Below are positions 5,471-55,787 of a DNA stretch of 64,000 bases, in pieces (position 1 is the first letter of the stretch; every line of letters starts with the position of its first letter). Location of the stretch: the NCBI RefSeq assembly GCF_988242995.1, contig NZ_OZ547043.1; one strand, given 5' to 3'. The notes under the pieces are model-generated. The model was not told where the DNA came from. It did no database searches and saw only the letters and a list, made by a program, of their open reading frames with translations. Position numbers and translations under genes: made by a program.

Positions 5471-5490
5471 TCTCTTTTGAACTTTAAGCT

Positions 5491-5524
5491 GAAAATGGCG
5501 CTTTAAGAAGCGCCATTTTTTTTA
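5491..5524. terminator. Rho-independent, probably bidirectional terminator between fdnI and yddM
   Basis: Inverted repeat aaaatggcgc...gcgccatttt flanked by A-run and T-run (aaaatggcgctttaagaagcgccattttttttatt). Confidence 0.75.
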
Positions 5525-7095: not shown

Positions 7096-8793
7096 TTAGA
7101 TGGAGGTACGGCGGTAGTCGCGGTATTCGGCGTGCCAGAAATTATCATCAATGGCCTGTTGCAGAGCTTCGGCGGAGGTTTTCACCGCCACGCCTTGCTG
7201 CTGCGCCATTTTGCCAACCGCAAAGGCAATTGCGCGGGAGACTTTCTGAATATCTTTCAGTTCCGGTAGTACCAGACCTTCGCCGTTCAGGACCAGCGGC
7301 GAATACTGAGCAAGCGTTTCACTCGCCGACATCAGCATCTCATCGGTGATACGTGACGCGCCGGAAGCAATAACGCCCAGCCCGATGCCCGGGAAAATAA
7401 AGGCGTTGTTACACTGGGCGATAGGGTAGATTTTATCTTTCCATACCACTGGGTTAAACGGACTGCCAGTGGCGACCAGCGCGTTACCTTCGGTCCAGGC
7501 GATAATGTCCTGCGGTGTGGCTTCCACGCGTGACGTCGGGTTAGACAGCGGCATCACGATCGGACGCGGACAGTGTTTATGCATCTCACGGATGATCTCT
7601 TCCGTAAACAGCCCGGTCTGTCCTGAGACGCCAATCAGAATATCTGGTTTTACATTACGCACCACATCCAGCAGTGACAGCACATCGCTGTCGGTATCCC
7701 AGTCACTGAGGTTTTCGCGCTTCTGCACCAGTTTGGTCTGGAAAGGCAGCAGGTTCGGCATCTTGTCGGTCAGCAGGCCAAAGCGATCAACCATAAAGAC
7801 TTTCTGCCGCGCCGCTTCCTCGCTTAATCCTTCACGCTGAGTCTGGGCGATGATCATTTCGGCAATCCCGCACCCCGCAGAGCCTGCGCCGAGGAAGACA
7901 ATCTTTTTCTCGCTCAGTTGACCACCCGCCGCGCGGCTGGCTGCGATCAGTGTGCCGACCGTTACCGCCGCGGTGCCCTGAATGTCATCGTTAAAAGAAC
8001 AAATTTCATTGCGATAGCGGTTAAGTAACGGCATCGCATTTTTTTGTGCGAAGTCTTCAAACTGCAACAGTACGTCCGGCCAGCGTTGTTTCACAGCCTG
8101 GATAAATTCATCAACGAATTCATAGTATTCGTCGTCAGTGATACGCGGATTACGCCAGCCCATATACAGCGGATCGTTAAGCAGCTGTTGGTTGTTCGTC
8201 CCGACATCCAGCACCACCGGAAGGGTATACGCTGGGCTGATGCCGCCACAGGCAGTATAGAGTGACAGTTTACCGATAGGAATGCCCATCCCGCCGATGC
8301 CCTGGTCACCAAGCCCCAGAATACGTTCACCGTCAGTCACCACAATCACTTTAATATTATGGTTCGGCACGTTTTGCAGAATATCGTCCATATTGTGGCG
8401 GTTCTGGTAAGAGATAAACACGCCGCGTGAACGGCGGTAGATCTCAGAAAAACGCTCACAGGCTGCGCCGACGGTTGGGGTATAAATAACAGGCATCATC
8501 TCATCAAGATGATTGTTTACCAGACGGTAGAAGAGGGTTTCGTTAGTGTCCTGGATGTTACGCAGGTAAATGTGTTTGTCGATTTCGGTTTTGAATCCCT
8601 GATACTGGATCCATGCTCGTTCCGCTTGTTCTTCGATGGTTTCGACCACTTCCGGCAGTAACCCCAGCAGGTTGAAGTTACGGCGTTCTTCCATGCTGAA
8701 GGCACTGCCTTTATTCAACAACGGAAATTCCAGCAGTACAGGGCCAGCGTAAGGAATATAAAGCGAACGCTGTTTTTTTGTTTTTGGTTCCAT
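7096..8793 (-). CDS. maeA: NAD-dependent malic enzyme
   Basis: Track ORF 7096-8829; start placed at [23 protein letters not shown] (565 aa); malic enzyme signature regions; follows adhP as in E. coli. Confidence 0.9.
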
Positions 8794-8889
8794 GTCACTC
8801 ACTCTTTTTTGAATATCCATCCCTGGCACGCTTTTATCGTCTTTGCTTTACCGCCAGGGCGTCGGCCCCAAGTATAAAGCAGATAAAAA

Positions 8890-9600
8890 TAAATATCCTC
8901 CGGCATAGCCGGAGGTTTTTCAAATGCGCCTGTAAGGCTCTGTTACCAGCCGCGCCCTAACAGGCGCACACGATCTGACATTTGCATCCAACTTCGTTAC
9001 TTACGGCCCGTAAACGGGCTGCCCGGATAGGGAATCGATAACTGCTCTCCCATTTTATCCTCTTCAAGCTGGTGCTTTATGTAGTCCTGTATCTTCGCCG
9101 TGTTCTTACCCACCGTATCGACATAGTACCCTCGGCACCAGAACTCCCTGTTTCTGTATTTGAATTTCAAATCCCCAAACTGCTCGTAAAGCATCAGACT
9201 GCTTTTCCCTTTCAGATATCCCATAAAGCCGGATACGCTCATTTTGGGTGGGATTTCCACAAGCATATGGATATGATCTGCGCAGCACTCTGCTTCCAGA
9301 ATCCGTACGCTTTTCCACTCACACAGCTTTCTCAAAATACTGCCTATCGCCCTACGCTTCTCTCCGTAAAACGCCAGTCTTCGGTATTTCGGCGCAAAAA
9401 CTATGTGATATTTACAGTTCCAGCGGGTGTGCGCTAAGCTCTTTTCGTCCCCCATTGGGACCCCCTTTTGATTTCTTGTTTGACACTTGCAGTTGCCAGA
9501 CCGCAAGGTGTTTTAACAAATCAAAAGGGGTTTTAATAACTGGCTCAAAGCTGAAAGCTTTCCGGAACCCCCAGCCTAGCTGGGGGTTTTCTGTGCACAA
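8890..9600 (-). mobile_element. IS200-type insertion sequence (IS200/IS605 family), about 0.7 kb; boundaries approximate
   Basis: Contains a 152-aa Y1 transposase gene flanked by subterminal hairpins at both ends (8897-8915 and 9566-9588), plus a long inverted repeat at about 9461-9529 over the tnpA start region (assumed to occlude the RBS). Not present at this position in K-12 as I recall. Confidence 0.7.
8997..9455 (-). CDS. tnpA: IS200 transposase TnpA (HUH / Y1 single-strand transposase)
   Basis: Track ORF 8997-9506; internal start MGDEKSLAHTRWNCKYHIVFAPKYRR...HIHMLVEIPP (HuH motif)...Y, 152 aa, typical IS200 TnpA. Confidence 0.85.
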   Translation of the reverse strand: MGDEKSLAHTRWNCKYHIVFAPKYRRLAFYGEKRRAIGSILRKLCEWKSVRILEAECCADHIHMLVEIPPKMSVSGFMGYLKGKSSLMLYEQFGDLKFKYRNREFWCRGYYVDTVGKNTAKIQDYIKHQLEEDKMGEQLSIPYPGSPFTGRK

Positions 9601-9604
9601 CAAA

Positions 9605-9630
9605 AACACCATTGCGCAGGCAATGGTGTT
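9605..9630 (-). terminator. Rho-independent terminator of sra
   Basis: Inverted repeat aacaccattgc / gcaatggtgtt; on the minus strand it is followed by tttttgttg, immediately 3' of the sra stop. Confidence 0.65.
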
Positions 9631-9659
9631 TAATCGTCATTGAGGACTGATGGTTATGA

Positions 9660-9797
9660 ATTACTTTTCAGAGGGGCGTTTTCTGCCGGTTGGGTTATTT
9701 ACCACGCTGGATTTGTCACCTTCGGTAACTATTTTGCGCTGGTTAGAAATTTTATGGTCCAGTCCAAGAATATGACGTGCCTGACGGTTCGATTTCA
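9660..9797 (-). CDS. sra: Stationary-phase-induced ribosome-associated protein (30S subunit protein S22), 45 aa
   Basis: Manual translation of the minus strand gives [45 protein letters not shown]; absent from the track (under the size cutoff). Confidence 0.85.
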
Positions 9798-9899
9798 TTT
9801 TAACTCCTCAATCCTGTTGCTAGTTTTAAGGACAACATCGCCGTAGCGAAGAAACACGTGCTAAACCCCTAAATTAGGTTGCCGATCAAGCATAGCACC

Positions 9900-10115
9900 T
9901 TAAAGCGTAGGGTGCTGGCCACTGACCACATAATTGATCGTTTGCTGGTAGATATCACTGAGGATGTCGTTATCAGAAGCTTCCACCCATTTGGTCAGCT
10001 CCATGAGAATGTCATCTTCAGTGACAACACCGTGCTCTGCCCGAAGGCCTTGCTCAATGGCATTAACCAGAGCGGGTTCTGCTGTTGAATTTTCTGCCTG
10101 ATAATAAGTAAACAT
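9900..10115 (-). CDS. bdm: Biofilm-dependent modulation protein, 71 aa
   Basis: Track ORF 9900-10178 with internal start MFTYYQAENSTAEPALVNAIEQGL...; located between sra and osmC as in E. coli. Confidence 0.85.
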   Translation of the reverse strand: MFTYYQAENSTAEPALVNAIEQGLRAEHGVVTEDDILMELTKWVEASDNDILSDIYQQTINYVVSGQHPTL

Positions 10116-42705: not shown

Positions 42706-45357
42706 TTAGCGACAGATTGCTGTCTGCTGGTTCAGTAAGGTACCAGGAGAAACTTCAGGAAGCTTGTACTCGACAATACAGTTTGAGTTTTTATCTTTGC
42801 CCCATGAAACCTGTAATTTCCCTGACTGTGGAAGTCCAGTCAGATAAACCTGACCGTTTTCCGCGACAATGCTGCCATTTTTATTCTCACCATGTATGAC
42901 AATTGCACCGAATGGAACGCTCTTATTACCGTACTTCAACGTCATTAATACTTTCCCGCCGATTTGTGCATTAAATGTTGCTCTGGCAATAGCACCGTGA
43001 GTTGGGATGACAGTGACAACGGTTTCATCCAGTTCAACATTATCTGCAAGGGAATTCGCGTTAAGAGCGACACGATTTTCTCTATATTCTGTCGCAAATG
43101 GTAATATGGCATAGCCACGCCAGTCGGTATGAATTCCGGTCTGGTTCTCTATTTTGACATTATCAGCGCCAGGAGCCTTAACCAGAACCATTGTGTCGCC
43201 CAGCGGCTGACCAAAGGTGATGCCATCAGCATGAGCAATAATCCCACCACTCATTCCGTAATAAATCTGGCTGCTGTCACCACTCCGACTGTAACCGACA
43301 TTAGTATTACCGTAAGCTCCACGATAATTAAGAGAACTGTAACCACTGGTGGCAGACGATGTATTACCCCCGTGGGTGTTACCGACCTGAACGCTATAAT
43401 TCAGGTTATTATCCGGCAGCAGAGTGCCATAAACCCCCGATAGATTGGTCATACCGCCTTTCAAATCGTTTGACATACTGTAACTGGCGTTTGAATTACG
43501 AAATGCCGACTGACTGTCTGTACGCATCCAATGACTGAAGGGAACATTAAGCGTAAAAGCAAGTAAATGATCCCGATCGTTTTGCCATATATTATTGGAA
43601 TAGCTGTAATTCAGCGAAGTCGTAATATCACCAAACGGCACATTTAATCCAAATGATATTTGCTGGTCGCTGCGTGACGTGTTCCAGTAACTTTGGCGAC
43701 TGGCACTGAAAAATGTCGTACCGTAATTTCCAAGCTGCTGAGAGATGCTTATTTGTTCCTGACCACGCTTACTGTAGAACAGATTAAAATAATCAATAAA
43801 TTGTGTCTGCTCATTGCTGTCTCCGGTAGGAGGCTTGACGGTGTAACCACTCATTCGACTGTAGGCACTGTCGGATAAGTTATAAAAACCTTGCGTAGAA
43901 TAGCGATATCCTGCGACCTGGATATTGGTTCCCGTCTGGTAGAAGGATTTGCTGTAGACGGATTTAATCGATTGCCCGCTGTGACGGGTGCCATCTGCAA
44001 GTGTCGTATTGGCCTGCGTGATATCGAAAGAAAAGGCACCAAAAAGTCCTAAATCTTTACCAATACCAAGGTTGAAGGCTTGATAATCTTCTGCAATTTG
44101 CATTCCGCCATAAGGTGTCCAGTTTCCTTCCAGTCCATGCATCAAGCTACCTTGTATGAACTTGGGGGAGCTTTGCAGGTTATTTCCACTACGATATTCC
44201 CCCATGGCAAGCGCATAACGCGTATATCCAGCACGTTGGAGAACCGGAACAGACGAATAAGGAACATATAATGTCTGAATACTGCCGTCTGCCTCTTTTA
44301 TGGTTACTTGCAGATCACCACCATTGGCCGCAGAGTTGATATCATCAATAGTAAAAGGGCCGGGTGGGACAGTAGTCTGATAAACATCGTATCCATTCTG
44401 TTTTACACTCACTTGTGCGGTGCCGCGGGCAATACCATGAATCACCGGAGCGAAACCATGTTGGCTATCGGGCAACATCGCTTCTGTTGAATTTATTTTG
44501 AGGCCACGAAAGTTCACACTATCAAAAATATCGCCATCGGTATAACTATCACCTACCGTTAAGCGTGAGCGTAAGGGAATAATGTCACGTTCAGCCGACG
44601 TATTGATGTGCTGCCATTTATTGCTGTCAGATGAATTGCTACTCCCACTGTTATAACTCCACGTTGAGTTATCGCGCAGTCGCCAACTACCAATGTTGAT
44701 GCCACTCTGTAAATTCAAATATGCATAGTTGGATTTTCCTGCATTATGGTTACTACGATTATTAATAGAATTACCATTAAAACTATAGTTTAGAAGCCCA
44801 GCATTTATTCCTTCTTCCCACAGATCAGGAGAAACATAGCCGCGAGCCATTCTGCCAACATAAATTTGCGGAACGGAGAGTGACAAATGTTGCTGACCAA
44901 CATCAAACTCAGTTGATGCGTCGGCCAAACGATCCTGAAGTGGTGTGCATGCGCTGTTGTCCGGCACATGTTTTTCTGCCAAATGTTCTTTATTGTCTAA
45001 TAACGCTGATTTTTTTATGCCAAGACTGACAAGAAGATCTGTACTCAGGCATGGGATGAGATCTGCGTTATTATCATCTGCAATAAAAGTAATATCCCGA
45101 CTAGTCATAAATTCGTCGTTCAAATAAATGTCGACCCGATATGTACCAGGTGGTGCCTCGCGTCCCTTAGTAAAGGCGGATAAATCGACAGATTCAGCAA
45201 GATCATTGCTTAAAAACCGTGGATTAAAATAATACTCTGCGTCAACGGGAAATACCGCAGTTGCTAAGCCAAGGGCAATGGTAAGCCGTGCAAAGCGAGG
45301 CAGTAGTAACACCTGATGCATACGATATGCCTTAAATGCGGCACGAAAGGCTGTCAT
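42706..45357 (-). CDS. ydeT: Fimbrial outer-membrane usher, full length (FimD/PapC family)
   Basis: 883-aa uninterrupted ORF; as I recall ydeT is a truncated pseudogene in K-12, so here the usher appears intact. Confidence 0.8.
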   Translation of the reverse strand: MTAFRAAFKAYRMHQVLLLPRFARLTIALGLATAVFPVDAEYYFNPRFLSNDLAESVDLSAFTKGREAPPGTYRVDIYLNDEFMTSRDITFIADDNNADLIPCLSTDLLVSLGIKKSALLDNKEHLAEKHVPDNSACTPLQDRLADASTEFDVGQQHLSLSVPQIYVGRMARGYVSPDLWEEGINAGLLNYSFNGNSINNRSNHNAGKSNYAYLNLQSGINIGSWRLRDNSTWSYNSGSSNSSDSNKWQHINTSAERDIIPLRSRLTVGDSYTDGDIFDSVNFRGLKINSTEAMLPDSQHGFAPVIHGIARGTAQVSVKQNGYDVYQTTVPPGPFTIDDINSAANGGDLQVTIKEADGSIQTLYVPYSSVPVLQRAGYTRYALAMGEYRSGNNLQSSPKFIQGSLMHGLEGNWTPYGGMQIAEDYQAFNLGIGKDLGLFGAFSFDITQANTTLADGTRHSGQSIKSVYSKSFYQTGTNIQVAGYRYSTQGFYNLSDSAYSRMSGYTVKPPTGDSNEQTQFIDYFNLFYSKRGQEQISISQQLGNYGTTFFSASRQSYWNTSRSDQQISFGLNVPFGDITTSLNYSYSNNIWQNDRDHLLAFTLNVPFSHWMRTDSQSAFRNSNASYSMSNDLKGGMTNLSGVYGTLLPDNNLNYSVQVGNTHGGNTSSATSGYSSLNYRGAYGNTNVGYSRSGDSSQIYYGMSGGIIAHADGITFGQPLGDTMVLVKAPGADNVKIENQTGIHTDWRGYAILPFATEYRENRVALNANSLADNVELDETVVTVIPTHGAIARATFNAQIGGKVLMTLKYGNKSVPFGAIVIHGENKNGSIVAENGQVYLTGLPQSGKLQVSWGKDKNSNCIVEYKLPEVSPGTLLNQQTAICR

Positions 45358-45398
45358 TTTTAATTCCGATTGAGTTTATTATTAATTAGGTCACTGGC

Positions 45399-46118
45399 TT
45401 ATTGCATGGTTGCCTTAATACGCGGAGTTAATGCACCGTAATCATTGATCGTCTGAAAACTGATATCCCCGGTTGCAGCATGCGGGATATCCACCGATAC
45501 TTCACCTTTTGGCGGCACCATGGTGTTTGGGAGATTGCTATTTCCTGCTTTCATATTTGTTACGGTAATGAAGTAGGGCGTTGGATTAATAAGAGTGAGT
45601 TTGCTGCCGCTGCGACGAAACCGAAGCATTGCAGGCGCTTCTTCAGGTGCCATTGCCAGGTTCGTGGGGCGATAAAACATTTTTATGCGGCTAATAATTG
45701 CCAGCTGTAATGTATTCTCATTCTTCTGATCTTTTTCCATAGCAGGAATAGCTTTAACATTAACCCAGAACAGGCTTTCACGGTCGCCTGGTAACTGATG
45801 ATTAGTGGCGTTGATTATCCGCAGCGTATTCTCTTTTTTACCTTGCATGGAAAAAAGCGGTGGCGTAATGACAAACTGGGTGTCTTTTTGGTCACCCTCA
45901 TTTTCTATCCATGACTGAATGAGATAGACACTGGCAGGATCATTATTCGTGACAGGCAATAAAACCTGTTTCTGGTTTGCCGGATAAATTACCCGCGTCG
46001 CACCCAGTGCGACAGCTGCGTTGGCAACGGTGCTATGGCAAGCAAAGAGCAATAAAAGTAACACTGTCGCCATAAAGGAAATAGAGTAGGGGGTACGCCT
46101 AGTTTGCATCTGATGCAT
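45399..46118 (-). CDS. Periplasmic fimbrial chaperone (PapD/FimC family)
   Basis: 239 aa; signal peptide; chaperone-like N-terminal region and C-terminal domain. Confidence 0.8.
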   Translation of the reverse strand: MHQMQTRRTPYSISFMATVLLLLLFACHSTVANAAVALGATRVIYPANQKQVLLPVTNNDPASVYLIQSWIENEGDQKDTQFVITPPLFSMQGKKENTLRIINATNHQLPGDRESLFWVNVKAIPAMEKDQKNENTLQLAIISRIKMFYRPTNLAMAPEEAPAMLRFRRSGSKLTLINPTPYFITVTNMKAGNSNLPNTMVPPKGEVSVDIPHAATGDISFQTINDYGALTPRIKATMQ

Positions 46119-46471
46119 TCTCCATGTGTTAAGAGGATAAGCGGGGAAACCGTTACATCAGACAATCGGTAAATGTTGCTAATACATTGGCGACTCGCCG
46201 GGTTTCCAGACTTAATGCGTTTGTAATAAATGTTGGTTCTCTTTTAATAGGAAAACATTGCTACAAAGTAAATATTTTAAATAACAGTAAGTTTAACTAC
46301 TGTTGTTTATTGATCGTTTAGATATTATGTGATTTTTTCATGCCGCTCCAAAACACAAACTATTCCTCATTAATAATGAGATGAACATTGGTGAATTGCT
46401 CGGGTGTGCGTAGCCATGCCACACACACCCTGTTTCAATTTCAGATGACGTATAGCCACCTTAAGATTGAA

Positions 46472-47035
46472 TTATAGATATTGAACTTTGAAGGTCGCAT
46501 CAGCGTTTGCAGTACCAGCTACTGACTGCCCGAGAGCAATATAACGAGCCTGGAACGGCAGTATATTCGTGCCATCAATCAAGTCAGTTTTAGCGCTAAA
46601 AGTGGCACCATCAAGTATTAATACCTCACCCGTACGGTCCAAAATTTGAATACCGACATTTTGGGCAGAGCCTGCCGCTGAACTCTGCAGCGCTAACGTA
46701 TCGTCATTACTGGTGACAGTAGTACCCAGGAATGCAACAGCTGCATTACTGGAAACATTGGTATCACAATCATTCAGCTTGATATTGAAGCCAACGGCGG
46801 AGCTGAGGTCACCCGCTTTAGCCAGACGAGAAGAACGGACCTGACCCAGCTCAACCGTTTGGTTCATTGATTCTGAATCAATCGCACAAGCGGCATTTAC
46901 CACTTCACCTTTAAAATGAATAACACCGCCATTAACAGTGGTCGTTACTGATTCATCACCCTCGGCTGCGCTTACCGCAGCAGACGACATCGCCAACACA
47001 GAAACGACAATCATACCGACATGTTTGAGTTTCAT
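46472..47035 (-). CDS. Major fimbrial subunit (type 1 / F9-like pilin)
   Basis: Track ORF 46472-47083 with internal start [23 protein letters not shown]; Cys pair and C-terminal ...TFKVQYL typical of FimA-like pilins. Confidence 0.8.
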
Positions 47036-47468
47036 AATTCTCCAGAATTTATATTTAAGTAGCTGAATAAAGAAAGTTAACAATTAAGTCATTCTGTTAT
47101 TGCTTATAAAACAAGAATCATTCTTGATGGGATATTGCCCTGAGAATATAGTTTCCAGGGTTATTACATTTCACGAAGAACGATAATATCTTTAAATTAC
47201 AAGGACACCTAATCACAACAAGTTTATTGCAGCACTTGTTGTAGAGGGTATTTGCAAAGACATTTTATGTCGCTAAATAACATTACGATTTCATTATGCA
47301 TGTTATTTATAAACAGCGACTAAACAGAATATTATTGCGAACAAGGGAAGTGTCAGGAAAGGTCAAGAGCGGCCAATGGTTTATATGGCTATAAAACATT
47401 AGCTATGGTTAATGTTTGACTGGTGTAACTAACACGGAATTGCTCTAAACAGATAAGTGCAGGGTTTA

Positions 47469-47723
47469 TTAAAGCTGACCGACAGACTTTCTTAACCCGG
47501 TAATATCTCTCTTAGGTGACTCTCCAAACATCCGCGAATATTCCCGACTGAAATGGGATAAGCTTTCGTAACCGACAGCATAGGCTGCAGTGGTGACATC
47601 GTAATGTTCATTCAGCATCAGTCGCCTGGCTTCATTGAGGCGTAGCCATTTCTGATACCGGAGTGGACTCATTCCCGCAAGCTGTCTGAAGTGTTGATGG
47701 AAAGTGGGGGTGTTCATTTGCAC
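47469..47723 (-). pseudogene. yneL: Remnant of an AraC-family regulator (C-terminal HTH only)
   Basis: 84-aa ORF is only the AraC C-terminal HTH domain (LRYQKWLRLNEARRLM...GYESLSHFSREYSRMFGESP); no N-terminal domain ORF upstream. Confidence 0.65.
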
Positions 47724-48003
47724 GCGGTTTGCCAGCCTGACTCTTCAACGCAGGGAAGATGCGGCAAACGGCAAACCTGCATACCAGCCAGCCTATATCC
47801 GGTATGCACAGGCCAATCATGAAAGAGGAGAGGCTTTATGTTCTGGAACCCTGAAGTAATAACGACGACTGGAAAATCGCTTCGCATCACTCAAATTCCA
47901 TTTAACTATTCTGGGTTTGAGGGATATACATAATTGACTTCAGCACCAGAAACAGCATAACAAACTGTTTTAAATGGATATTAATCAAATGGCGATTCAA
48001 ACT

Positions 48004-48038
48004 CACAGTTATGAACTCAGTTTTGGTTCATAACTGTG
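48004..48038. repeat. Perfect 13-bp inverted repeat with 9-bp spacer
   Basis: cacagttatgaac-tcagttttg-gttcataactgtg; a related palindromic 10-mer gttcatgaac lies about 40 nt further on. Confidence 0.8.
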
Positions 48039-48137
48039 TTAAACGCTGTCCATAAATCACTCGATGTTACGCTTATTGGTTCATGAACTGTTCGTTCTAA
48101 TGTTGTGATGTGCGTCAGGTTTTAGTGTTCGGTAATG

Positions 48138-48941
48138 TTACCTTTTACTCGATGATCGATTGTTTAGCACCTCTCCCACAACCGGAGCAGCGGTAAATGC
48201 GTTTGGCCAGCCAGCATAGAAGGCGGCCTGGGTAACGATCTCACCAGCTTCCTCAACAGAAAGTCCATTATCCATTGCTCTGTTAAGGTGATAGCCAATC
48301 TGCGCGCTCTGTCCGGATGCGATTAAGGCGCTGACCGTAATCAGGCTTCTGTCGCGGGGTTTCAGCGCGGGTCTTTGCCAGAGATCCAGGAAGAGTGGAT
48401 CAGCAGTGAATTTAACCAGGCCTGGAGATATTGGGCCAACATTTTTTTCCACTGTTTCTGAACGCTGCTTTTCTGCTTCCTGATTGAGAGGAAGCAGGTC
48501 CGGAGAAGCGTCAGGAAGTGCATCTGCCGTGACGCCACGAGTTTCAAATACTGCTTTGGTCACGCTGACGGCTGACATTGCATTTGGCCAACCTGAGTAG
48601 AACGCCAGATGGGTAATGATTTCTGATAATTCCGCTGGCGTCACGCCGCTATCGAGAGCGACGTCAATATAGTGCTTAAGCTGGGCAGGCTGGTTGCGGG
48701 CAATCAGCATGGCGACGGTCACCACACTACGATCCCTCGGTGAGAGGGCGTCGCGTGTCCACAGATCTTCAGTAATAGCTTCGCGACCAAAGCGCGCGAG
48801 AGCCGGTGAGACGGAACGAATATCAGCTTCCGAAATCGCTGACGGTTCTATTTTCATCATAGCTTTACCTCTTGTTTCCTCAGCATTGGCAAAATCAGAA
48901 ATAACAAGCGACATAGCCGCTGCTGCAAGTACGCTTTTCAT
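48138..48941 (-). CDS. Tandem carboxymuconolactone decarboxylase-like (AhpD-like) protein with predicted signal peptide
   Basis: 267 aa; two repeated modules each with a ...ITHLAFYSGWPNA... type segment (CMD/AhpD fold); N-terminus MKSVLAAAAMSLVISDFANA looks like a Sec signal. Confidence 0.7.
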   Translation of the reverse strand: MKSVLAAAAMSLVISDFANAEETRGKAMMKIEPSAISEADIRSVSPALARFGREAITEDLWTRDALSPRDRSVVTVAMLIARNQPAQLKHYIDVALDSGVTPAELSEIITHLAFYSGWPNAMSAVSVTKAVFETRGVTADALPDASPDLLPLNQEAEKQRSETVEKNVGPISPGLVKFTADPLFLDLWQRPALKPRDRSLITVSALIASGQSAQIGYHLNRAMDNGLSVEEAGEIVTQAAFYAGWPNAFTAAPVVGEVLNNRSSSKR

Positions 48942-48956
48942 GTTAATCCTTACTGG

Positions 48957-49682
48957 TCAACGTTGCTGCTCCTGTTTGATTCCGCCTTTGTTACGAAGAA
49001 ATACCGGTTTTACCGGGATTGCGTCCTTCCTGGCGCTCATATGCGCCGTTTGCCTGAGGTAATCCAGGAAGTGCGGCGTTTGTCGGTGCAGTTGATAATC
49101 CTCCTCACTGGCGTAAATCTCATAGAAATACCAGCGTTTTGGAGTCTCTGAATCTGTACCGGCATACATGGCTAACACGCCTTTCTCTACTTTGAGCGAC
49201 TCGACCATTTCAGGAAGGACGATGTTTCTAAATTCGCTCTGAAATTCAGGCTTTACTTCGACGATCACCAGATTATTGATAGTTCGTTCATTCGGTATGA
49301 TGTGTTTGTCGCCCAGAAACTGTGGCTCCAGGGTAATTTTCTTCTTCCTGTCAATAATGTCAGGTGCACGAGCAGCGAATGCTTTGTATGGGGCGGCATT
49401 GAGATGTTTGCGATAAGCACGCTCATTTTCATAGAGTTCGAACATGAATGCCTTATGTGGATTGTCGCTGTGGTGCAGGGCGTACATCGCCAGCGTACCT
49501 ACTTCATGATCAACCGAAGCGGAAATCGTCTGTCTGGCTACGTCTGCAAAGTCGTTGTCCCGATCGGGTCTGATGCCGAGCTCGAAGATATTCATCTCCG
49601 GCTTATTCGGCGCGTCCGGTTTTGTTGCAAAGACAGGGCTGCTTATTAGCATGCAAATTAAAAGCATAAAAGTCTTTTTCAC
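48957..49682 (-). CDS. Tandem ABM-type (antibiotic biosynthesis monooxygenase-like) protein with predicted signal peptide
   Basis: 241 aa; two halves each with LAMYA...FYEIY / FELYENE... features of the ferredoxin-like ABM fold; N-terminus MKKTFMLLICMLISSPVFA. Confidence 0.6.
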   Translation of the reverse strand: MKKTFMLLICMLISSPVFATKPDAPNKPEMNIFELGIRPDRDNDFADVARQTISASVDHEVGTLAMYALHHSDNPHKAFMFELYENERAYRKHLNAAPYKAFAARAPDIIDRKKKITLEPQFLGDKHIIPNERTINNLVIVEVKPEFQSEFRNIVLPEMVESLKVEKGVLAMYAGTDSETPKRWYFYEIYASEEDYQLHRQTPHFLDYLRQTAHMSARKDAIPVKPVFLRNKGGIKQEQQR

Positions 49683-49797
49683 GATGATCTTTTTACTGAC
49701 ATTACTGTTTAAGACGTTCGATCAACTGGTGCTGGTAGGAACGTAACCGACCGCTACTGGCGCTCTCAAAGACTAGAGGAGGAAAAGTGAATAAGGG

Positions 49798-50817
49798 CTA
49801 TCGCGTCCATACCTGCTTAACATCTTTCGTTTGCGGCGTATTTTGCGCCATGATCCCCGTCAGAACATGCGGCTGGTAGGTTTCTTCCAGAAACTGAATT
49901 TCCTCCGGACTTAGTTGAAGATTTACTGCGTTTACCGCGCCATCGACATGAGCTTTTTTTGTAGCCCCTACGACAGGTGATGTGACTTTTGTCAGCAGCC
50001 AAGCGAGAGATATTTCCGTCATTGACACCAGATGGCGTTCGGCCAGTTCGGCTACACGCTCAATAATGCTGCGATCCTGTTCAGCCGTGCTGTCATATTT
50101 TCCACGCGCATAGTCATCCTCTGTGGCTCGCCGCGTATAGCCTTCTTTACGAGAGAGGCGGCCGCTGGCCAGCGCGCTATAGGGGGTCATTGCGATATTA
50201 TCCTCAGTGCACAGGCCGAAGAGCTCCCGTTCATCTTCGCGCATAATTAGATTGTAGTGGCTCTGTACGGAAACAAAGGGCGTCAGCCCTTCGCGTTCAG
50301 CAAGGGCGTTCGCCTTCGCCAGCTGCCAGGCATAGCAGTTTGAAATACCAACAGCTCGTACTTTGCCAGCAGTAACAGCGGTATGTAACGCTTCAAGCAC
50401 GTCGATAATGGGCGTGTTGTAATCCCAGATGTGGTAGATGTAGAGGTCGATATAGTCCATCCCCAGATTCTTCAGGCTCTGGTCAAGGGATTGAGCGATT
50501 GCCTCTTTTCCGCTGATCCCTCCGGCAATTTGTGCGGGGGTTCGCGGCAGAAACTTGGTGGCCAGGACGATATCATCGCGTTTCGCCATCTCCCGTAATG
50601 CCCGGCCAACGTATCGCTCACTGGAGCCATTCTGGTAGGCTATAGCGGTATCGTAAAAGTTGATGCCCTTTTCAAGGCCATAGCGAATGATGTCGCGGCT
50701 TGCTGTTTCGTCCAGCGTCCAGCTATGCTGACCCGTCGACGGATCGCCAAACCCCATGCATCCCATGCAGATGCGGGAAACAAGTAAGTCACTTTTACCG
50801 AGCCGGGTATACTGCAT
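49798..50817 (-). CDS. Aldo/keto reductase
   Basis: 339 aa; AKR motifs (GINFYDTAIAY, catalytic Tyr/Lys context). Confidence 0.8.
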   Translation of the reverse strand: MQYTRLGKSDLLVSRICMGCMGFGDPSTGQHSWTLDETASRDIIRYGLEKGINFYDTAIAYQNGSSERYVGRALREMAKRDDIVLATKFLPRTPAQIAGGISGKEAIAQSLDQSLKNLGMDYIDLYIYHIWDYNTPIIDVLEALHTAVTAGKVRAVGISNCYAWQLAKANALAEREGLTPFVSVQSHYNLIMREDERELFGLCTEDNIAMTPYSALASGRLSRKEGYTRRATEDDYARGKYDSTAEQDRSIIERVAELAERHLVSMTEISLAWLLTKVTSPVVGATKKAHVDGAVNAVNLQLSPEEIQFLEETYQPHVLTGIMAQNTPQTKDVKQVWTR

Positions 50818-50819
50818 TG

Positions 50820-51392
50820 TTATTCTCCCTCTGGATTATTCACGACGGAATTGAGCAGTTCGACAAGCCTTGAAGCGTGTTCCCGGGCAAGCGTTTTTTG
50901 CTGCGCGATTTTGTCGGCATCCCGGTCGGCATAGCTGATACCGCAGGTATAAACCGGCGCCAGCAGCTCAAGATTGCACAGCCTTGCCGTGGTTTCGAAC
51001 GGAATAAGATACTCTTCAATGGTATTGCCAAAGAAACTGTCGACGGTATAGAGCTCCTCTGGCGCTCCCGTTGTAAAGGAGAGGATCAGCTTTTTACCGC
51101 CCAGTTTCGCCGTTGAGCCATGCGCGAAGCCGTGAACAAAGACCTCGTCCAGCCATTTTTTCATTAATCCTGGCAGCCCATACCAGGAAAAAGGGAACTG
51201 CCAGACAATCACATCGGCCCTGAGCAGGCTTTTCTGCTCCGCCGCGATGTTGAATTTGCCATCCGGATAGAGCCTGTCCAGACGACGAATCTCAACATCG
51301 GGAAGGGCGGTCTCCACTTCATCAAGAATAGTGGCATTGGCGACGGAATGGGTAAGCTCAGGATGACCTGAAATAACAAGGATATTTTTCAT
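50820..51392 (-). CDS. Flavodoxin-like NAD(P)H:quinone oxidoreductase family protein
   Basis: 190 aa; MKNILVISGHPE... N-terminus and WQFPFSWYGLPGLMKKWLDEV typical of NAD(P)H dehydrogenase (quinone) family; 3-nt gap to the downstream AKR gene. Confidence 0.75.
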   Translation of the reverse strand: MKNILVISGHPELTHSVANATILDEVETALPDVEIRRLDRLYPDGKFNIAAEQKSLLRADVIVWQFPFSWYGLPGLMKKWLDEVFVHGFAHGSTAKLGGKKLILSFTTGAPEELYTVDSFFGNTIEEYLIPFETTARLCNLELLAPVYTCGISYADRDADKIAQQKTLAREHASRLVELLNSVVNNPEGE

Positions 51393-51542
51393 TTCAATCA
51401 GTTAAACATCTTTGGTGAATATTAAATCCAGTATAGAGTGACAACATTATTTTTTTAGAGCAGTAAAGGCTCATTCACTTTTAGGCAAAAACTAATAATT
51501 GTCGGCTGATCACAATGTGCTCAGTCATCATGAAACGGTGAA

Positions 51543-52220
51543 CTAAACCGTGATGCCCAGTAAACGTTCTGCATTGCGAAACGCGATGGCCTCTTTTTCA
51601 GCCTTGTTGACGGGCAGACTGTCTATAAAGGTTTTTACACCGTCCAGGGGTCTGATAGGGATAACCGACGGAGAACAGGATCCTTTCAGCACCCATTAAC
51701 GCGTAGATAAACTGGAAGTGCGGCAGTGTTAGCATATGACGGGGTAACGTAAACGTGTTCCTGGAAGGTTCTCGTTAGCGTGCGTGACAGACCCGTTGCA
51801 GCCAGTGCTAGGCTGTCATCAAGACGCTGGAGCCAGAAGGGTAACATCTCCCCCCAGTGGCCACTGATTACCTGCAGGTTGGGATATTTATCAAATGCGC
51901 CCGATAACATCAGCCGCAACAAATGGATCCCCGCTTCGTGATGCCAGCCCCAGGCAAACATAGAAAGCCTGGCGTTGACCTCTGCGCTGAAGCCCGTGAA
52001 GTAGGCCTGCTGTACGCTTTTAAGCGGTAACCCGGGATGAAGATAGAGTGGCACATTCAGTTTATTAAAGCGGGAAAGCAGGGAGTCGGTCAGGATTATG
52101 ACCATCAGCGACGGTTTTCCCCCTGTCGCCAAGGAAAGGTGCCTGCTCAAGCGCAACAGGCATACACGCGCGCCCTAACTCGCTGTCGAGATAATTTTCT
52201 TCGAGGCAAATGATTTTCAT
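51543..52220 (-). pseudogene. Frameshifted amidohydrolase-2 (TIM-barrel metal-dependent hydrolase) gene
   Basis: Coding potential is split over three frames: MKIICLEENYLDSELG... (from ATG at 52220), a 156-aa middle ORF (51686-52156) containing ISGHWGEMLPFW, and a C-terminal piece ...AEKEAIAFRNAERLLGITV* ending at 51543. Confidence 0.55.
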
Positions 52221-52322
52221 ATTCTCACCATTCATACAAAGCAGTAAAAGTGATACAGATTAGAATCACCCGGAACAGCCCGTTCGTGTGTGTCATTCAT
52301 GACAGTCTGTTCCGGACGGGCT

Positions 52323-53270
52323 TTACACCATCGGTTTTTCCCAGGCGCCTCGTGTATCCACTCTGGTCTCTGCGGCGAGTTGTTCCAGCAGGATGATTTC
52401 CTCATCGCGTAACTGGATGTCTGAAGCGCAGGCGGCGTCCAGAACGTGATGGACTTTAGTCGCACCAACGAGGGGAAGGGTACCTTTCACAATAGCCCAT
52501 GCGATGGATATCTGTGCCACGCTGGCATTCCTTTCGGCTCCCATTTTTTTCATGGCGGCGGTTAGTCTTTCTATCTGCGGCAGTACGGCGTTATAACTTT
52601 CGGCCCGGCCACTCCCGGCAGGCATGGGATGATTTGAATCATAACGACCACTGAGCGCGCCTTGCTCCAGGACCATGTAAGCAAAGAACGTGATGTTATT
52701 TTGTCGGCAATAATCAAGGATCCCGGCCTCTTCAGAAGCGCGATAGAGCAGGCTGTAGTGATTTTGTACTGCACTGAGGGAATAACCGGAAGCGTTAAGG
52801 ATTTCATTGGCGCGTCTGATTTGTGCCAGATTGTGGTTGGAAACACCTACGCGTTTTACCTTACCGCTTTGTAAAAGTGGGATCAGTCCTGGCGTCCATT
52901 TTTCGACGTCGAGGGGATTATGGATCCAGTAGATATCAATCGCGTCCACGCCCAGGCGCCCAAGGCTGGCCTCAAGCATATCGCTGACAGGCTGCGCAGA
53001 CTGCTTGTCCGCAATCTGCGGCGTGAATTTGGTGGATAAAATTATGTTCTCGCGGGGAAACTGACGGACTAATGCTCCCAGCGCAGTCTCGGAACTCCCC
53101 ATACCATATACTGCTGCGGTATCCCAGAGATTGAGGCCCTTACTCATGGCCGCAGTGAACACTTCTGCCATCTGAGTATCAGAAAGATGATTACCAAAGA
53201 CGGTGTCGCCGCCGGCAAAGCCTGTGCCCCAGGACCATGTACCTAGTGCGACTGGAGGTAGTGTTTTCAT
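52323..53270 (-). CDS. Aldo/keto reductase
   Basis: 315 aa; AKR motifs (LWDTAAVYG, IDIYWIHNP). Confidence 0.8.
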   Translation of the reverse strand: MKTLPPVALGTWSWGTGFAGGDTVFGNHLSDTQMAEVFTAAMSKGLNLWDTAAVYGMGSSETALGALVRQFPRENIILSTKFTPQIADKQSAQPVSDMLEASLGRLGVDAIDIYWIHNPLDVEKWTPGLIPLLQSGKVKRVGVSNHNLAQIRRANEILNASGYSLSAVQNHYSLLYRASEEAGILDYCRQNNITFFAYMVLEQGALSGRYDSNHPMPAGSGRAESYNAVLPQIERLTAAMKKMGAERNASVAQISIAWAIVKGTLPLVGATKVHHVLDAACASDIQLRDEEIILLEQLAAETRVDTRGAWEKPMV

Positions 53271-53343
53271 ATTCAGCTCCTGAAAAAAGGCCGGATCGTG
53301 GCTGACTTAAACCGGCCAAGTAAGGTGAGTAACGATGAATTAA

Positions 53344-54033
53344 TTAAGCTGTCCGGCGGAGTGCATTTAACAGCGCCACACCAACCCCATGTGCTGAAGC
53401 GGGATTCTGCCCCGTGATAAGGCGATCGTCGGTAACCACGTTTTCAGACCAGTTTGGAGCTTCATGATAAAGCGCACCATGCTCGCGAAGTGCGGTTTCA
53501 AGCAGGAAGGGAACCACATCTGTTGTGTGAACTTCTTCCTCTTCCTTGTTGGTAAAGGCCGCCACATTTTTCCCTTTTATCAGGTATTCGCCGCTACTGA
53601 GTTTTGCGTCAACCAATGCCGCAGGCCCGTGGCAGACGGCTGAGACAATCCCATCACTTTCATACACTTCGCGGATAATACGCTGGGCATCCTGATTATC
53701 ACGGAAATCCCACATGGTCCCATGACCACCTGCAAAGAAAACTGCGCTGTAATCGGCACCTTTCAGCTCGGATAACGCAGGTGTTGTTGCCAGGCGCTGC
53801 TGAAAATCGGTTTCGTTCCAGTACCAGGCGTTAACAGGGTCGCTGAGGTCAAATCCATCCACCGGTGGCTGCCCCCCGCGAATACTGGCTATTGTTGTTT
53901 TTATTCCGGCATCTTCCAGTACTTTCAGCGGATGAGTCAGCTCGGCCAGGAAAAAACCGGTTGGTACACCGGATGCGCCTTTAATCGGATGGCTGGAAAC
54001 GACACATAGCACTGGTTTATATGCAGGTTTCAT
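53344..54033 (-). CDS. DJ-1/PfpI (class I glutamine amidotransferase-like) family protein
   Basis: Roughly 229 aa; nucleophile-elbow-like AVCHGP; start uncertain (track ORF extends to 54045). Confidence 0.75.
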   Translation of the reverse strand: MKPAYKPVLCVVSSHPIKGASGVPTGFFLAELTHPLKVLEDAGIKTTIASIRGGQPPVDGFDLSDPVNAWYWNETDFQQRLATTPALSELKGADYSAVFFAGGHGTMWDFRDNQDAQRIIREVYESDGIVSAVCHGPAALVDAKLSSGEYLIKGKNVAAFTNKEEEEVHTTDVVPFLLETALREHGALYHEAPNWSENVVTDDRLITGQNPASAHGVGVALLNALRRTA

Positions 54034-54041
54034 ATCGGTCC

Positions 54042-54353
54042 TCACTCTTTATTTTTAAATTCATCGGCGAAGAGATTTTCCCAGTTAATAAAGGAGCCAA
54101 GCGGTATACACTCGAAGCTTAGTAAGCCTGCTTTTGCCAACGGGAATTCGGCCATAACGTTCATCGCTTCATCGACAGAGTCACATTCAAGAAAAATAGC
54201 GACGCCAGGTCTGTCCTGACGGAAGTAGATGTCGCGGATGAAGCCTGATTTATACAATCCCCAGGCGTGCAGCGCTTCAGCGTTGAGGTGCGGAGCATAT
54301 TTCTCCAGCGATGCTCCAGGGGCAGGGATATCCAGACATAAAATTCGCATCAT
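54042..54353 (-). CDS. Small alpha+beta-barrel protein, possibly muconolactone-isomerase-like
   Basis: 103-aa ORF first in the operon; weak pattern similarity to muconolactone isomerase and other dimeric alpha/beta-barrel proteins; assignment tentative. Confidence 0.45.
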   Translation of the reverse strand: MMRILCLDIPAPGASLEKYAPHLNAEALHAWGLYKSGFIRDIYFRQDRPGVAIFLECDSVDEAMNVMAEFPLAKAGLLSFECIPLGSFINWENLFADEFKNKE

Positions 54354-54489
54354 AGTCTCCTGAACTCAGGTCGTTGTAGAAAGAGACTAAAGTATAAGAG
54401 GCGTATTTCAGGAAGATTAGAGGGTCATTGACTTAAGCATTTTTAGACTGTACTTAATAATCAGGCGAGAATTGCTTTAGGAAAACATT

Positions 54490-55389
54490 ATGAATAACGC
54501 TCTTTATAACCAGATTCGCATCTTCCAGAGCATTGCGCGGGAGGGCAATATTTCGGCAGCCGCAAGGAAACTGGAAATTACGCCTCCCTCCGTCAGCAAT
54601 GCACTAAAGCTGCTGGAAGAGTATATCGGCCATCCGCTTTTTGTGCGTACGACCCGCCGTATAGAGCTGACGGAAACCGGTCAATTATTGCTGGAACAGA
54701 CCGCTGCGGCGGTGGAGTCGCTGGAAAACTCACTTGAAAGCATTCGCGACCAGCATCAGGAGCCCTCTGGGATGGTGCGAATTACGCTCTCGCGTTTTGC
54801 CTACCTGTTAATTCTTAAGCCTGCGATGGCAGAATTCTGTCAGCAATATCCGGGTATACAGTTAGAAATTTCGGTCTACGACGGTACCGTGAATATCATC
54901 AAAGAGCGTTTTGATCTGGGGATCCGTTTTGGCGATATTCTTGAGGGAGGGGTGGTGGCCCGACCGTTAATGAAACCGTTTCGTGAAGGATTATATGCAT
55001 CCTCAGCGTATCTCTCCCGACATGGAACGCCTGAAGTGCCGGCAGATCTCTGTCATCACCAGCTGATTGGTTACCGTTTTATCACCAACAACCGCATCCT
55101 TCCGCTGCTCCTGAACGATCGCGGTGAGCAGTTGACCGTTGAGATGCCGGGGCAGTTAATCAGCAACGATATTGACGTTATGGCAGACGGGATCCGTAAC
55201 GGGCTGGGAATTGGGCGCTTGTTTGAGCCTGTCTGGCAGTTACAGCCGGACAGGGAGCGCTTTATTCCGGTGATGGAGAGCTACTGGAAAACCTACCCGC
55301 CAGTGTATCTCTATTACCCCAAAAACGCGGGTAAAACGAAAAGAGTGAAGGCCCTGATTGATTTTCTGATATCCACTACGGGGCGATAA
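54490..55389 (+). CDS. LysR-family transcriptional regulator
   Basis: 299 aa; N-terminal HTH (ISAAARKLEITPPSVSNALKLLEE) and LysR substrate-binding domain; divergent from the redox operon. Confidence 0.85.
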   Translation: MNNALYNQIRIFQSIAREGNISAAARKLEITPPSVSNALKLLEEYIGHPLFVRTTRRIELTETGQLLLEQTAAAVESLENSLESIRDQHQEPSGMVRITLSRFAYLLILKPAMAEFCQQYPGIQLEISVYDGTVNIIKERFDLGIRFGDILEGGVVARPLMKPFREGLYASSAYLSRHGTPEVPADLCHHQLIGYRFITNNRILPLLLNDRGEQLTVEMPGQLISNDIDVMADGIRNGLGIGRLFEPVWQLQPDRERFIPVMESYWKTYPPVYLYYPKNAGKTKRVKALIDFLISTTGR

Positions 55390-55787
55390 AGACGATAACG
55401 CCTCGTTCAGTATGGAGATGCATCGAATGGCATTGTGAGTTTTTTTTCACAGATGGGCGTAATCGTCAGTGGATTTTACATACGAGGATAGCGCCCACAT
55501 ACTGACATCATTAATTAACGTTGGGTGAGGTTTACCGGGGGGGAGGGGAACGCGAACCAGGAGATGGAGGTGGCCAATCTGGTACGAACCGCCGCGTAGC
55601 TTGCACGGCAAGAGCTGCTGACTGATTCATCAGTTAAGCTACTGAAAGAGCGGAACACATGAACTTAAGAACAAACCACCACATTTAACATAATATACAT
55701 TATGCGCACCAGCATAAACCAAGGAAGAATCCAGTCGTTGGCGGCCATAATTGTCCTGCTCATTAACAACGACCAAAACCCCATATC

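Follow-up and report, generated by a model that had tools for sequence, protein, structure and literature searches.

The 64,000 nucleotides of DNA analysed here (hereafter the window) contain only one IS200 copy, located between sra and maeA, and this copy is almost certainly an intact, autonomous IS200C-like element that arrived by TnpA peel-and-paste transposition and was ligated precisely into the T-tract of the sra terminator. Insertion at a site such as that of sra is typical of the IS200 group rather than a coincidence.

Position and ends of the insertion

The inserted segment occupies 8890..9600 on the minus strand (711 bp), with the left end (LE) at 9600 and the right end (RE) at 8890. 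These limits were derived by exact string comparison with the empty sites of E. coli K-12 and E. coli AF39, and not from a gapped alignment, and they coincide with the coordinates that had been proposed for the element from the letters of the sequence. In K-12 the sra–maeA spacer has a length of 156 nt and is empty at the insertion position, in agreement with the statement in the initial annotation that this strain has no IS there. When the two flanks are joined they equal the AF39 spacer at 160/160 nt and the K-12 spacer at 156/160. The complete identity with the AF39 empty site indicates that no host base was duplicated or lost, and confirms that the insertion is precise, without target duplication or deletion. 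Read on the minus strand, with a slash at each junction, the sequence runs ...GCAATGGTGTTTTTG / TTGTGCACAG ... GGATATTTA / TTTTTATCTGC.... The ends are precise to +/-2 bp, because the tip of the element (TT) and the flanking T-run look alike and the boundary can therefore slide by up to 2 bp. Among 40 matches sampled evenly down the E. coli ranking, the best 21, all at other loci, have query positions 1 and 711 as their exact limits, and these full-length matches thus provide an independent fix of the IS ends.

Within the region 8400–10100 the three genes maeA, a 152-aa ORF and sra are co-oriented on the minus strand. The sra gene (45 aa; 9661..9798), which is co-oriented with tnpA, has its stop codon 60 nt upstream of LE, whilst the start codon of maeA (565 aa; 7096..8793) is situated 96 nt downstream of RE, so that the element does lie between maeA and sra as first described. 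The gene order adhP-maeA-sra-bdm-osmC-ddp is the same as in E. coli K-12, and to the right of the IS the alignment of the window with K-12 is one unbroken 34-kb block of ~97–98% identity, which lends no support to a Shigella origin of the DNA.

Transposase and family identity

The only credible ORF in the 711 bp is an intact tnpA (8997..9455, minus strand) encoding a 152-aa Y1/HUH transposase with the motif H61-I-H63 and a catalytic Tyr125. The protein matches Pfam Y1_Tnp (PF01797) over residues 11–129 with E=9e-37 and the NCBIfam equivalog NF033573 ('IS200/IS605 family transposase') with 144.4 bits against a cut-off of 55, which upholds the assignment to an IS200-type Y1/HuH transposase in the initial annotation. 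An IS200/IS605 match for the ORF and flanks, on which that annotation had made its reading depend, was obtained (NF033573; Rfam RF01405). The TnpA core aligns over its full length with the solved structures 2EC2, 2F4F, 2A6M (IS608) and 2XM3 (ISDra2), and its HUH motif and Tyr125 are aligned with the motifs of PDB 2EC2; Tyr125 is the residue changed in the catalytically dead IS200 TnpA Y125F (PMC4513863). Since the inserted segment is just 711 bp long and has one gene, there is no tnpB. Terminal inverted repeats are also absent, the ends TTGTGCACAG... and ...GGATATTTA not being inverted copies of each other. The features found are those of the IS200 group, namely a Y1 HUH transposase of ~150 aa, subterminal hairpins, a length of ~0.7 kb with tnpA only, no target-site duplication, a short target at LE and an IS200-specific 5' region. 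In every tested respect, the element belongs to the IS200 group of the IS200/IS605 family.

We also considered whether the locus could be a REP-associated tyrosine transposase (RAYT) or an IS605-type two-gene element, given that TnpA has weak similarity to NCBIfam REP_Tyr_transpos. This similarity amounts to 30 bits, far under the cut-off of 80 for that model, compared with 144 bits against 55 for the IS200 equivalog, and a discrete 711-bp insertion with defined ends and a single gene leaves no tnpB. Both identities were rejected on these grounds, and we give them practically no weight.

The closest known systems are IS200 of Salmonella enterica and IS200C of E. coli, which share with the window element a length of ~707–711 bp, a single 152-aa tnpA with Tyr125, an LE terminator hairpin at nt 12–34, a Shine-Dalgarno (SD) stem-loop at ~nt 69–138, an STnc490/art200 region and an RE hairpin, and which also have neither terminal inverted repeats nor target duplication. 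The element differs from copies labelled 'IS200C family' by PGAP in being ~3% divergent in nucleotides (96–97% identical), and from IS200 and IS200C in its sra–maeA location, which is occupied in no other genome searched.

Hairpins and RNA features of the element

Folding recovered both of the subterminal hairpins that had been claimed for the element. The LE hairpin, AACCCCCAGC-TAG-GCTGGGGGTT, spans 9566..9588 on the minus strand and corresponds to positions 1–23 of the Rfam RF01405 model. The RE hairpin, CCTCCGGC-TAT-GCCGGAGG, spans 8897..8915 on the same strand and is followed by ATATTTA, the end of the IS, and then by the T-run of the flank. Both fold far better than shuffled sequences (z -5.2 for LE and -3.9 for RE), and the RE hairpin is terminator-like on both strands in a terminator scan. 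A further stem-loop, at 9462..9530 on the minus strand, buries the SD sequence of tnpA (RNA fold -64.1 kcal/mol, z -5.0). The 5' part of the element thus folds into both of the published IS200 left-end structures, a terminator hairpin and a long SD-hiding stem-loop.

The IS200 LE hairpin has been described as a terminator acting in both directions against impinging transcription and as the presumed TnpA-binding hairpin (PMC4513863, PMC5435999), and in Salmonella IS200 this terminator stops ~85% of impinging transcripts (PMC5435999). The Salmonella stem-loop cuts translation ~20-fold, with further repression by art200 and Hfq (PMC5435999, PMC4513863). According to Ellis et al., the art200 sRNA (formerly STnc490) is antisense to the tnpA 5'UTR (PMC4513863), and from this description the art200 region of the present copy is predicted at ~9447..9536 on the plus strand. 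Expression of tnpA from this copy is expected to be minimal, because the gene would be nearly silent behind two terminators in series (that of sra and its own), the SD stem-loop, art200 and Hfq.

The Rfam RF01405 (STnc490) match is full length (model positions 1–124) and scores 146.4 bits against a gathering score of 56. It runs from 9588 to 9465 on the minus strand, which is the tnpA-sense strand, and includes the LE terminator hairpin. In practice the Rfam STnc490 family describes the strand of the 5'UTR and not that of art200.

Distribution of the element and rarity of the site

A search with the 711-bp sequence gave a match in 3,094 of 5,426 complete E. coli genomes; in 2,063 of the 5,426 a copy reaches at least 80% coverage of the element, and a single genome may have up to 35 places. 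The element falls within a subgroup of at least 99% identity comprising 216 records, and a 100% identical copy is present in E. coli TUM1886 between yedP and yodD. As it is identical to copies in public genomes, the element itself is already known; it is the location that is rare. A 1.1-kb query over both junctions, at a coverage of at least 80%, detected an occupied sra–maeA site in 0/5,426 complete E. coli genomes. None of these genomes exceeds 99.2% identity in the flanks, which places the source strain outside this set, and there were no exact matches to the LE junction in JGI metagenome contigs. In all 10 distinct neighbourhoods listed, from 95 contigs with an identical MaeA (a protein too widespread to be diagnostic of a strain), sra and maeA are directly adjacent. 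The insertion is therefore useful mainly as a lineage marker, as the sra–maeA site is empty in every other genome searched.

These observations indicate that the insertion is rare, lineage-specific and probably recent. The region could also have been acquired by recombination with the IS already inside, and not by transposition in the present strain. Another explanation is that the copy is an immobile relic retained for its RNAs (the 5'tnpA sRNA or art200), in keeping with the near dormancy of IS200 in Salmonella (PMC4513863, PMC5435999) and with the regulation of Salmonella virulence genes by its 5'UTR-derived sRNA (PMC5435999). We regard a relic as improbable: the ORF, catalytic residues and both ends of the copy are intact, the site is polymorphic and unique to the present lineage, and identical copies occupy different loci in other strains, all of which fits with recent movement.

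In other E. coli strains an IS200 copy is found ~3 kb away, between fdnI and yddM (e.g. locus L140, 6381–6839). The window has no IS200 between these genes (~5490–5520) and also lacks a 330-bp K-12 segment there.

Insertion into the T-tract of the sra terminator

The sra intrinsic terminator hairpin (9604..9631, minus strand) is host DNA and the same hairpin is present in K-12; it reads AAACACCATTGC-CTGC-GCAATGGTGTTT and is followed by a T-run. The sra terminator had been named as the neighbour of the element, and the IS indeed abuts this hairpin and sits within its T-tract, in the arrangement GGTGTTTTTG/IS/TTTTTATC, with the flank TTTTTG at the LE junction. The first five T's of the tract are retained and the tip of the IS then continues as TTGTG, and for this reason termination of sra should survive. 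On the RE side, the hairpin and ATATTTA join the remaining host T-run, so that terminator-like structures stand at both junctions.

Association of IS200-group copies with terminators

The same arrangement was seen at 8/8 independent E. coli sites, where LE adjoins a GC-rich hairpin with its T-run, and the RE flank opens with leftover T's. These sites are that of sra, the aas-galR spacer and positions downstream of yedP, nuoN, sseA, lom, xylA and emrB. A scan for the 23-nt LE hairpin, in which each species was represented by one genome, gave at least 120 loci in at least 16 taxa. The matches listed include Yersinia pestis (IS1541), Vibrio, Brenneria, Dickeya and Edwardsiella, together with metagenome-assembled genomes (MAGs) assigned to Oxalobacter, Mailhella, Bacillota, Peptococcaceae, Saccharibacteria and Elusimicrobiaceae.

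A flank was scored as having a stable hairpin when its last 40 nt folded with an energy of -10 kcal/mol or lower and the stem ended within 8 nt of the IS tip. Among the matches listed, 122 of 126 unique LE flanks from 16 taxa (97%) have a stable hairpin plus T-run, whereas in the same loci the hairpin criterion was passed by 19% of random points and by 11% of points anchored behind any TTTT run. The median folding energies for these matches were -17.9 kcal/mol for IS flanks versus -6.9 for random points and -5.3 for T-run controls. A strict perfect-stem finder gave a hairpin at 100/126 flanks; this finder undercounts, hence our use of the folding-energy criterion. The spacing is also constrained among the matches listed, with the last G:C pair of the hairpin 4–7 nt from the IS tip in 104/122 flanks and T at flank positions -4, -3 and -2 in 103, 121 and 106 of 126 independent copies, respectively. 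For Y. pestis alone, 52 of the 54 flanks listed conform to the hairpin plus T-run rule. A terminator T-tract at a fixed distance from a hairpin offers a simple annotation rule for fixing the ends of IS200 copies, and the rule predicts that IS200-group insertions are nearly neutral for both neighbouring genes.

IS1541 of Y. pestis, at 710 bp, has the same 23-nt LE hairpin and the same RE hairpin plus ATATTTA as the window element and shares the habit of abutting hairpin plus T-run sites, but its LE tip is TTGTGCCCAG versus TTGTGCACAG and it reaches more than 50 copies per Y. pestis genome, some of them in tandem. A Yersinia IS1541 lies between pheL and pheA, the location of an attenuator terminator (PMC3082878), and therefore fits the terminator pattern.

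Head-to-tail tandem copies of IS1541 were observed at several Y. pestis loci (L074 ~300–370, L075 2661–3393, L077 12605–13337, L121 and L091). In these the LE of the second copy starts directly after the RE hairpin and ATATTTA of the first copy, or one extra T later, as if the right end of IS1541 were itself a target, to judge from the sequence of these junctions.

Two of the E. coli sites differ in their gene context. The aas-galR spacer copy of strain RIVM_C019217 (L002 3215–3245) adjoins a terminator hairpin without a co-oriented protein gene upstream, an arrangement apparently also present in many similar top matches of the junction-spanning search. The omrA and omrB sRNA genes lie in this spacer, and the target of the copy may be an sRNA terminator. 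In FDAARGOS_1289 (L007 1447–2230) an IS200C copy is located between xylA and xylB, after a hairpin and T-run inside the xylAB operon, and could be polar on the downstream gene.

The exact 23-nt LE hairpin also occurs, in many cases close to the end of a contig, in MAGs assigned to very distant phyla (Bacillota, Peptococcaceae, Mailhella/Desulfovibrio, Oxalobacter, Saccharibacteria and Elusimicrobiaceae), which suggests either very wide horizontal spread or binning contamination.

Mechanism and target choice

In IS608 and ISDra2, a single strand is cut out by TnpA in circular form and then joined to the 3' side of a short single-stranded target, and no duplication results (PMC5027513, PMC2806898). 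The same reaction would account for the present copy, with ligation into the T-tract behind the sra terminator hairpin and tnpA co-oriented with sra, and its products match the observed junctions. For this copy we infer both the single-strand mechanism and the silencing of tnpA from the work on IS608 and Salmonella IS200. So close to the terminus, the GC skew across the window as a whole is too weak to tell the leading from the lagging strand, or to place the active strand of the element on the lagging-strand template.

The likeness to IS608 of Helicobacter pylori and to ISDra2 extends to a homologous Y1/HUH TnpA (2A6M, 2XM3), subterminal hairpins and strand-specific insertion 3' of a short LE-adjacent sequence without duplication (PMC5027513, PMC2806898). 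These elements differ in carrying tnpB and in that a tetra- or pentanucleotide target suffices (TTAC, TTGAT), whereas almost all IS200-group copies among the matches listed adjoin a stable hairpin with a T-run behind it. We tentatively suggest that IS200-group transposases home to a structured single-strand target, consisting of a hairpin with insertion 4–7 nt later in a T-run, which amounts to an intrinsic terminator that mimics the RE of the element. Base-pairing logic for target recognition comes from work on IS608. By this logic the T-run target would pair with A-rich bases immediately before the 5' foot of the LE hairpin (...GAA/AACCCCC). The target hairpin would also be read by the transposase, because the geometry of the site (hairpin and a T-rich tail of 4–7 nt) copies that of the element's own RE (hairpin and 7 nt).

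Alternatively, the terminator association may have arisen through purifying selection only, by the loss of insertions at other places, with a transposase for which a short T-rich target is enough. Such a process would accord with the IS608 paradigm, in which a tetranucleotide in single-stranded DNA suffices (PMC5027513, PMC2806898), with intergenic locations downstream of genes being the least harmful, and with a preprint in which terminator-like sequences upstream of ISs are read as a niche limiting transposase expression. The T-run control, the constant spacing and the Y. pestis counts all speak against selection as the sole cause, which we consider unlikely: among the matches listed, hairpins occur at 11% of T-run-anchored points versus 97% of IS flanks, insertion takes place at a fixed 4–7 nt from the last G:C pair, and the rule holds at 52/54 flanks in Y. 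pestis, despite the relaxed selection against IS damage in that genome. Tandem IS1541 copies, moreover, use the RE hairpin and ATATTTA of another copy.

If homing to terminators is true, IS200 and IS1541 are 'terminator-homing' elements with a niche analogous to that of group IIC introns, and this habit would explain their harmlessness, persistence and wide transfer. Group IIC introns reportedly home just after intrinsic terminator stem-loops (Robart, Seo and Zimmerly in PNAS, 2007). They occupy the same niche at a similarly low host cost, but are retroelements with a different chemistry, and the likeness is in niche only. The mechanistic question raised is by what means so small an HUH transposase would recognise a hairpin in the target DNA. 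In the searchable literature we found terminator targeting just as a statistical remark, in a preprint, on terminator-like sequences upstream of IS200/IS605 elements, and Ellis et al. 2015 contains no mapping of de novo insertion sites; we do not claim novelty for terminator targeting.

Possible effects on maeA

The insertion is a candidate cis-effect on maeA, a possibility already raised in the initial annotation, and any such effect is inferred from the layout of the site. The 96 nt between the IS junction and the maeA ATG are unchanged, and the RE hairpin together with ATATTTA and the host TTTTTATC is terminator-like on both strands in the terminator scan. With these 96 nt untouched and terminator-like hairpins at both IS ends, the element is more likely to be an insulator than an activator. 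The net effect would be insulation, with less read-through from sra into maeA and everything upstream of -96 displaced by 711 bp. If maeA expression changes, loss of sra read-through is the likeliest change.

Whether the insertion measurably alters maeA expression, either because the gene is cut off from upstream promoter elements or from sra read-through, or because a hybrid promoter arises at the RE junction, is doubtful. The IS end is just 96 nt from the maeA ATG, and the LE terminator, by comparison with the ~85% termination of impinging transcripts in Salmonella IS200 (PMC5435999), would cut any sra read-through. The sole TAnnnT hexamer in the 96 nt is TATACT, starting 13 nt from the junction, and its -35 would therefore fall in replaced sequence; the candidate -35 position reads GGTGTT in the empty site versus AGGATA in the occupied site, which would matter if TATACT is the maeA -10, a reading made from the sequence only. 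Against an altered expression, a consensus scan predicted no sigma-70-like promoter in either the occupied site or the K-12 empty site, and the RE hairpin with its T-run resembles a terminator facing maeA. We know of no outward promoters carried by IS200. A published maeA transcription start was likewise not found in the accessible literature, including the PMC4161252 supplement and PMC4288677, and the sigma-S SELEX peak inside maeA serves adhP (PMC5493296).

Other features of the window

The yde fimbrial operon at 42706–47083 looks complete, with an 883-aa usher, a chaperone and a major subunit; K-12 lacks ~3.3 kb at this operon and has a much shorter usher gene, ydeT. Another segment absent from K-12, of 8 kb (47678–55683), separates the yde fimbrial genes from hipA. 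Judged from the translations, it encodes two aldo/keto-reductase-like proteins, a flavodoxin-like NAD(P)H oxidoreductase, a DJ-1/PfpI-like protein, a carboxymuconolactone-decarboxylase-like protein and a LysR-type regulator, and no IS or integrase was seen in it.
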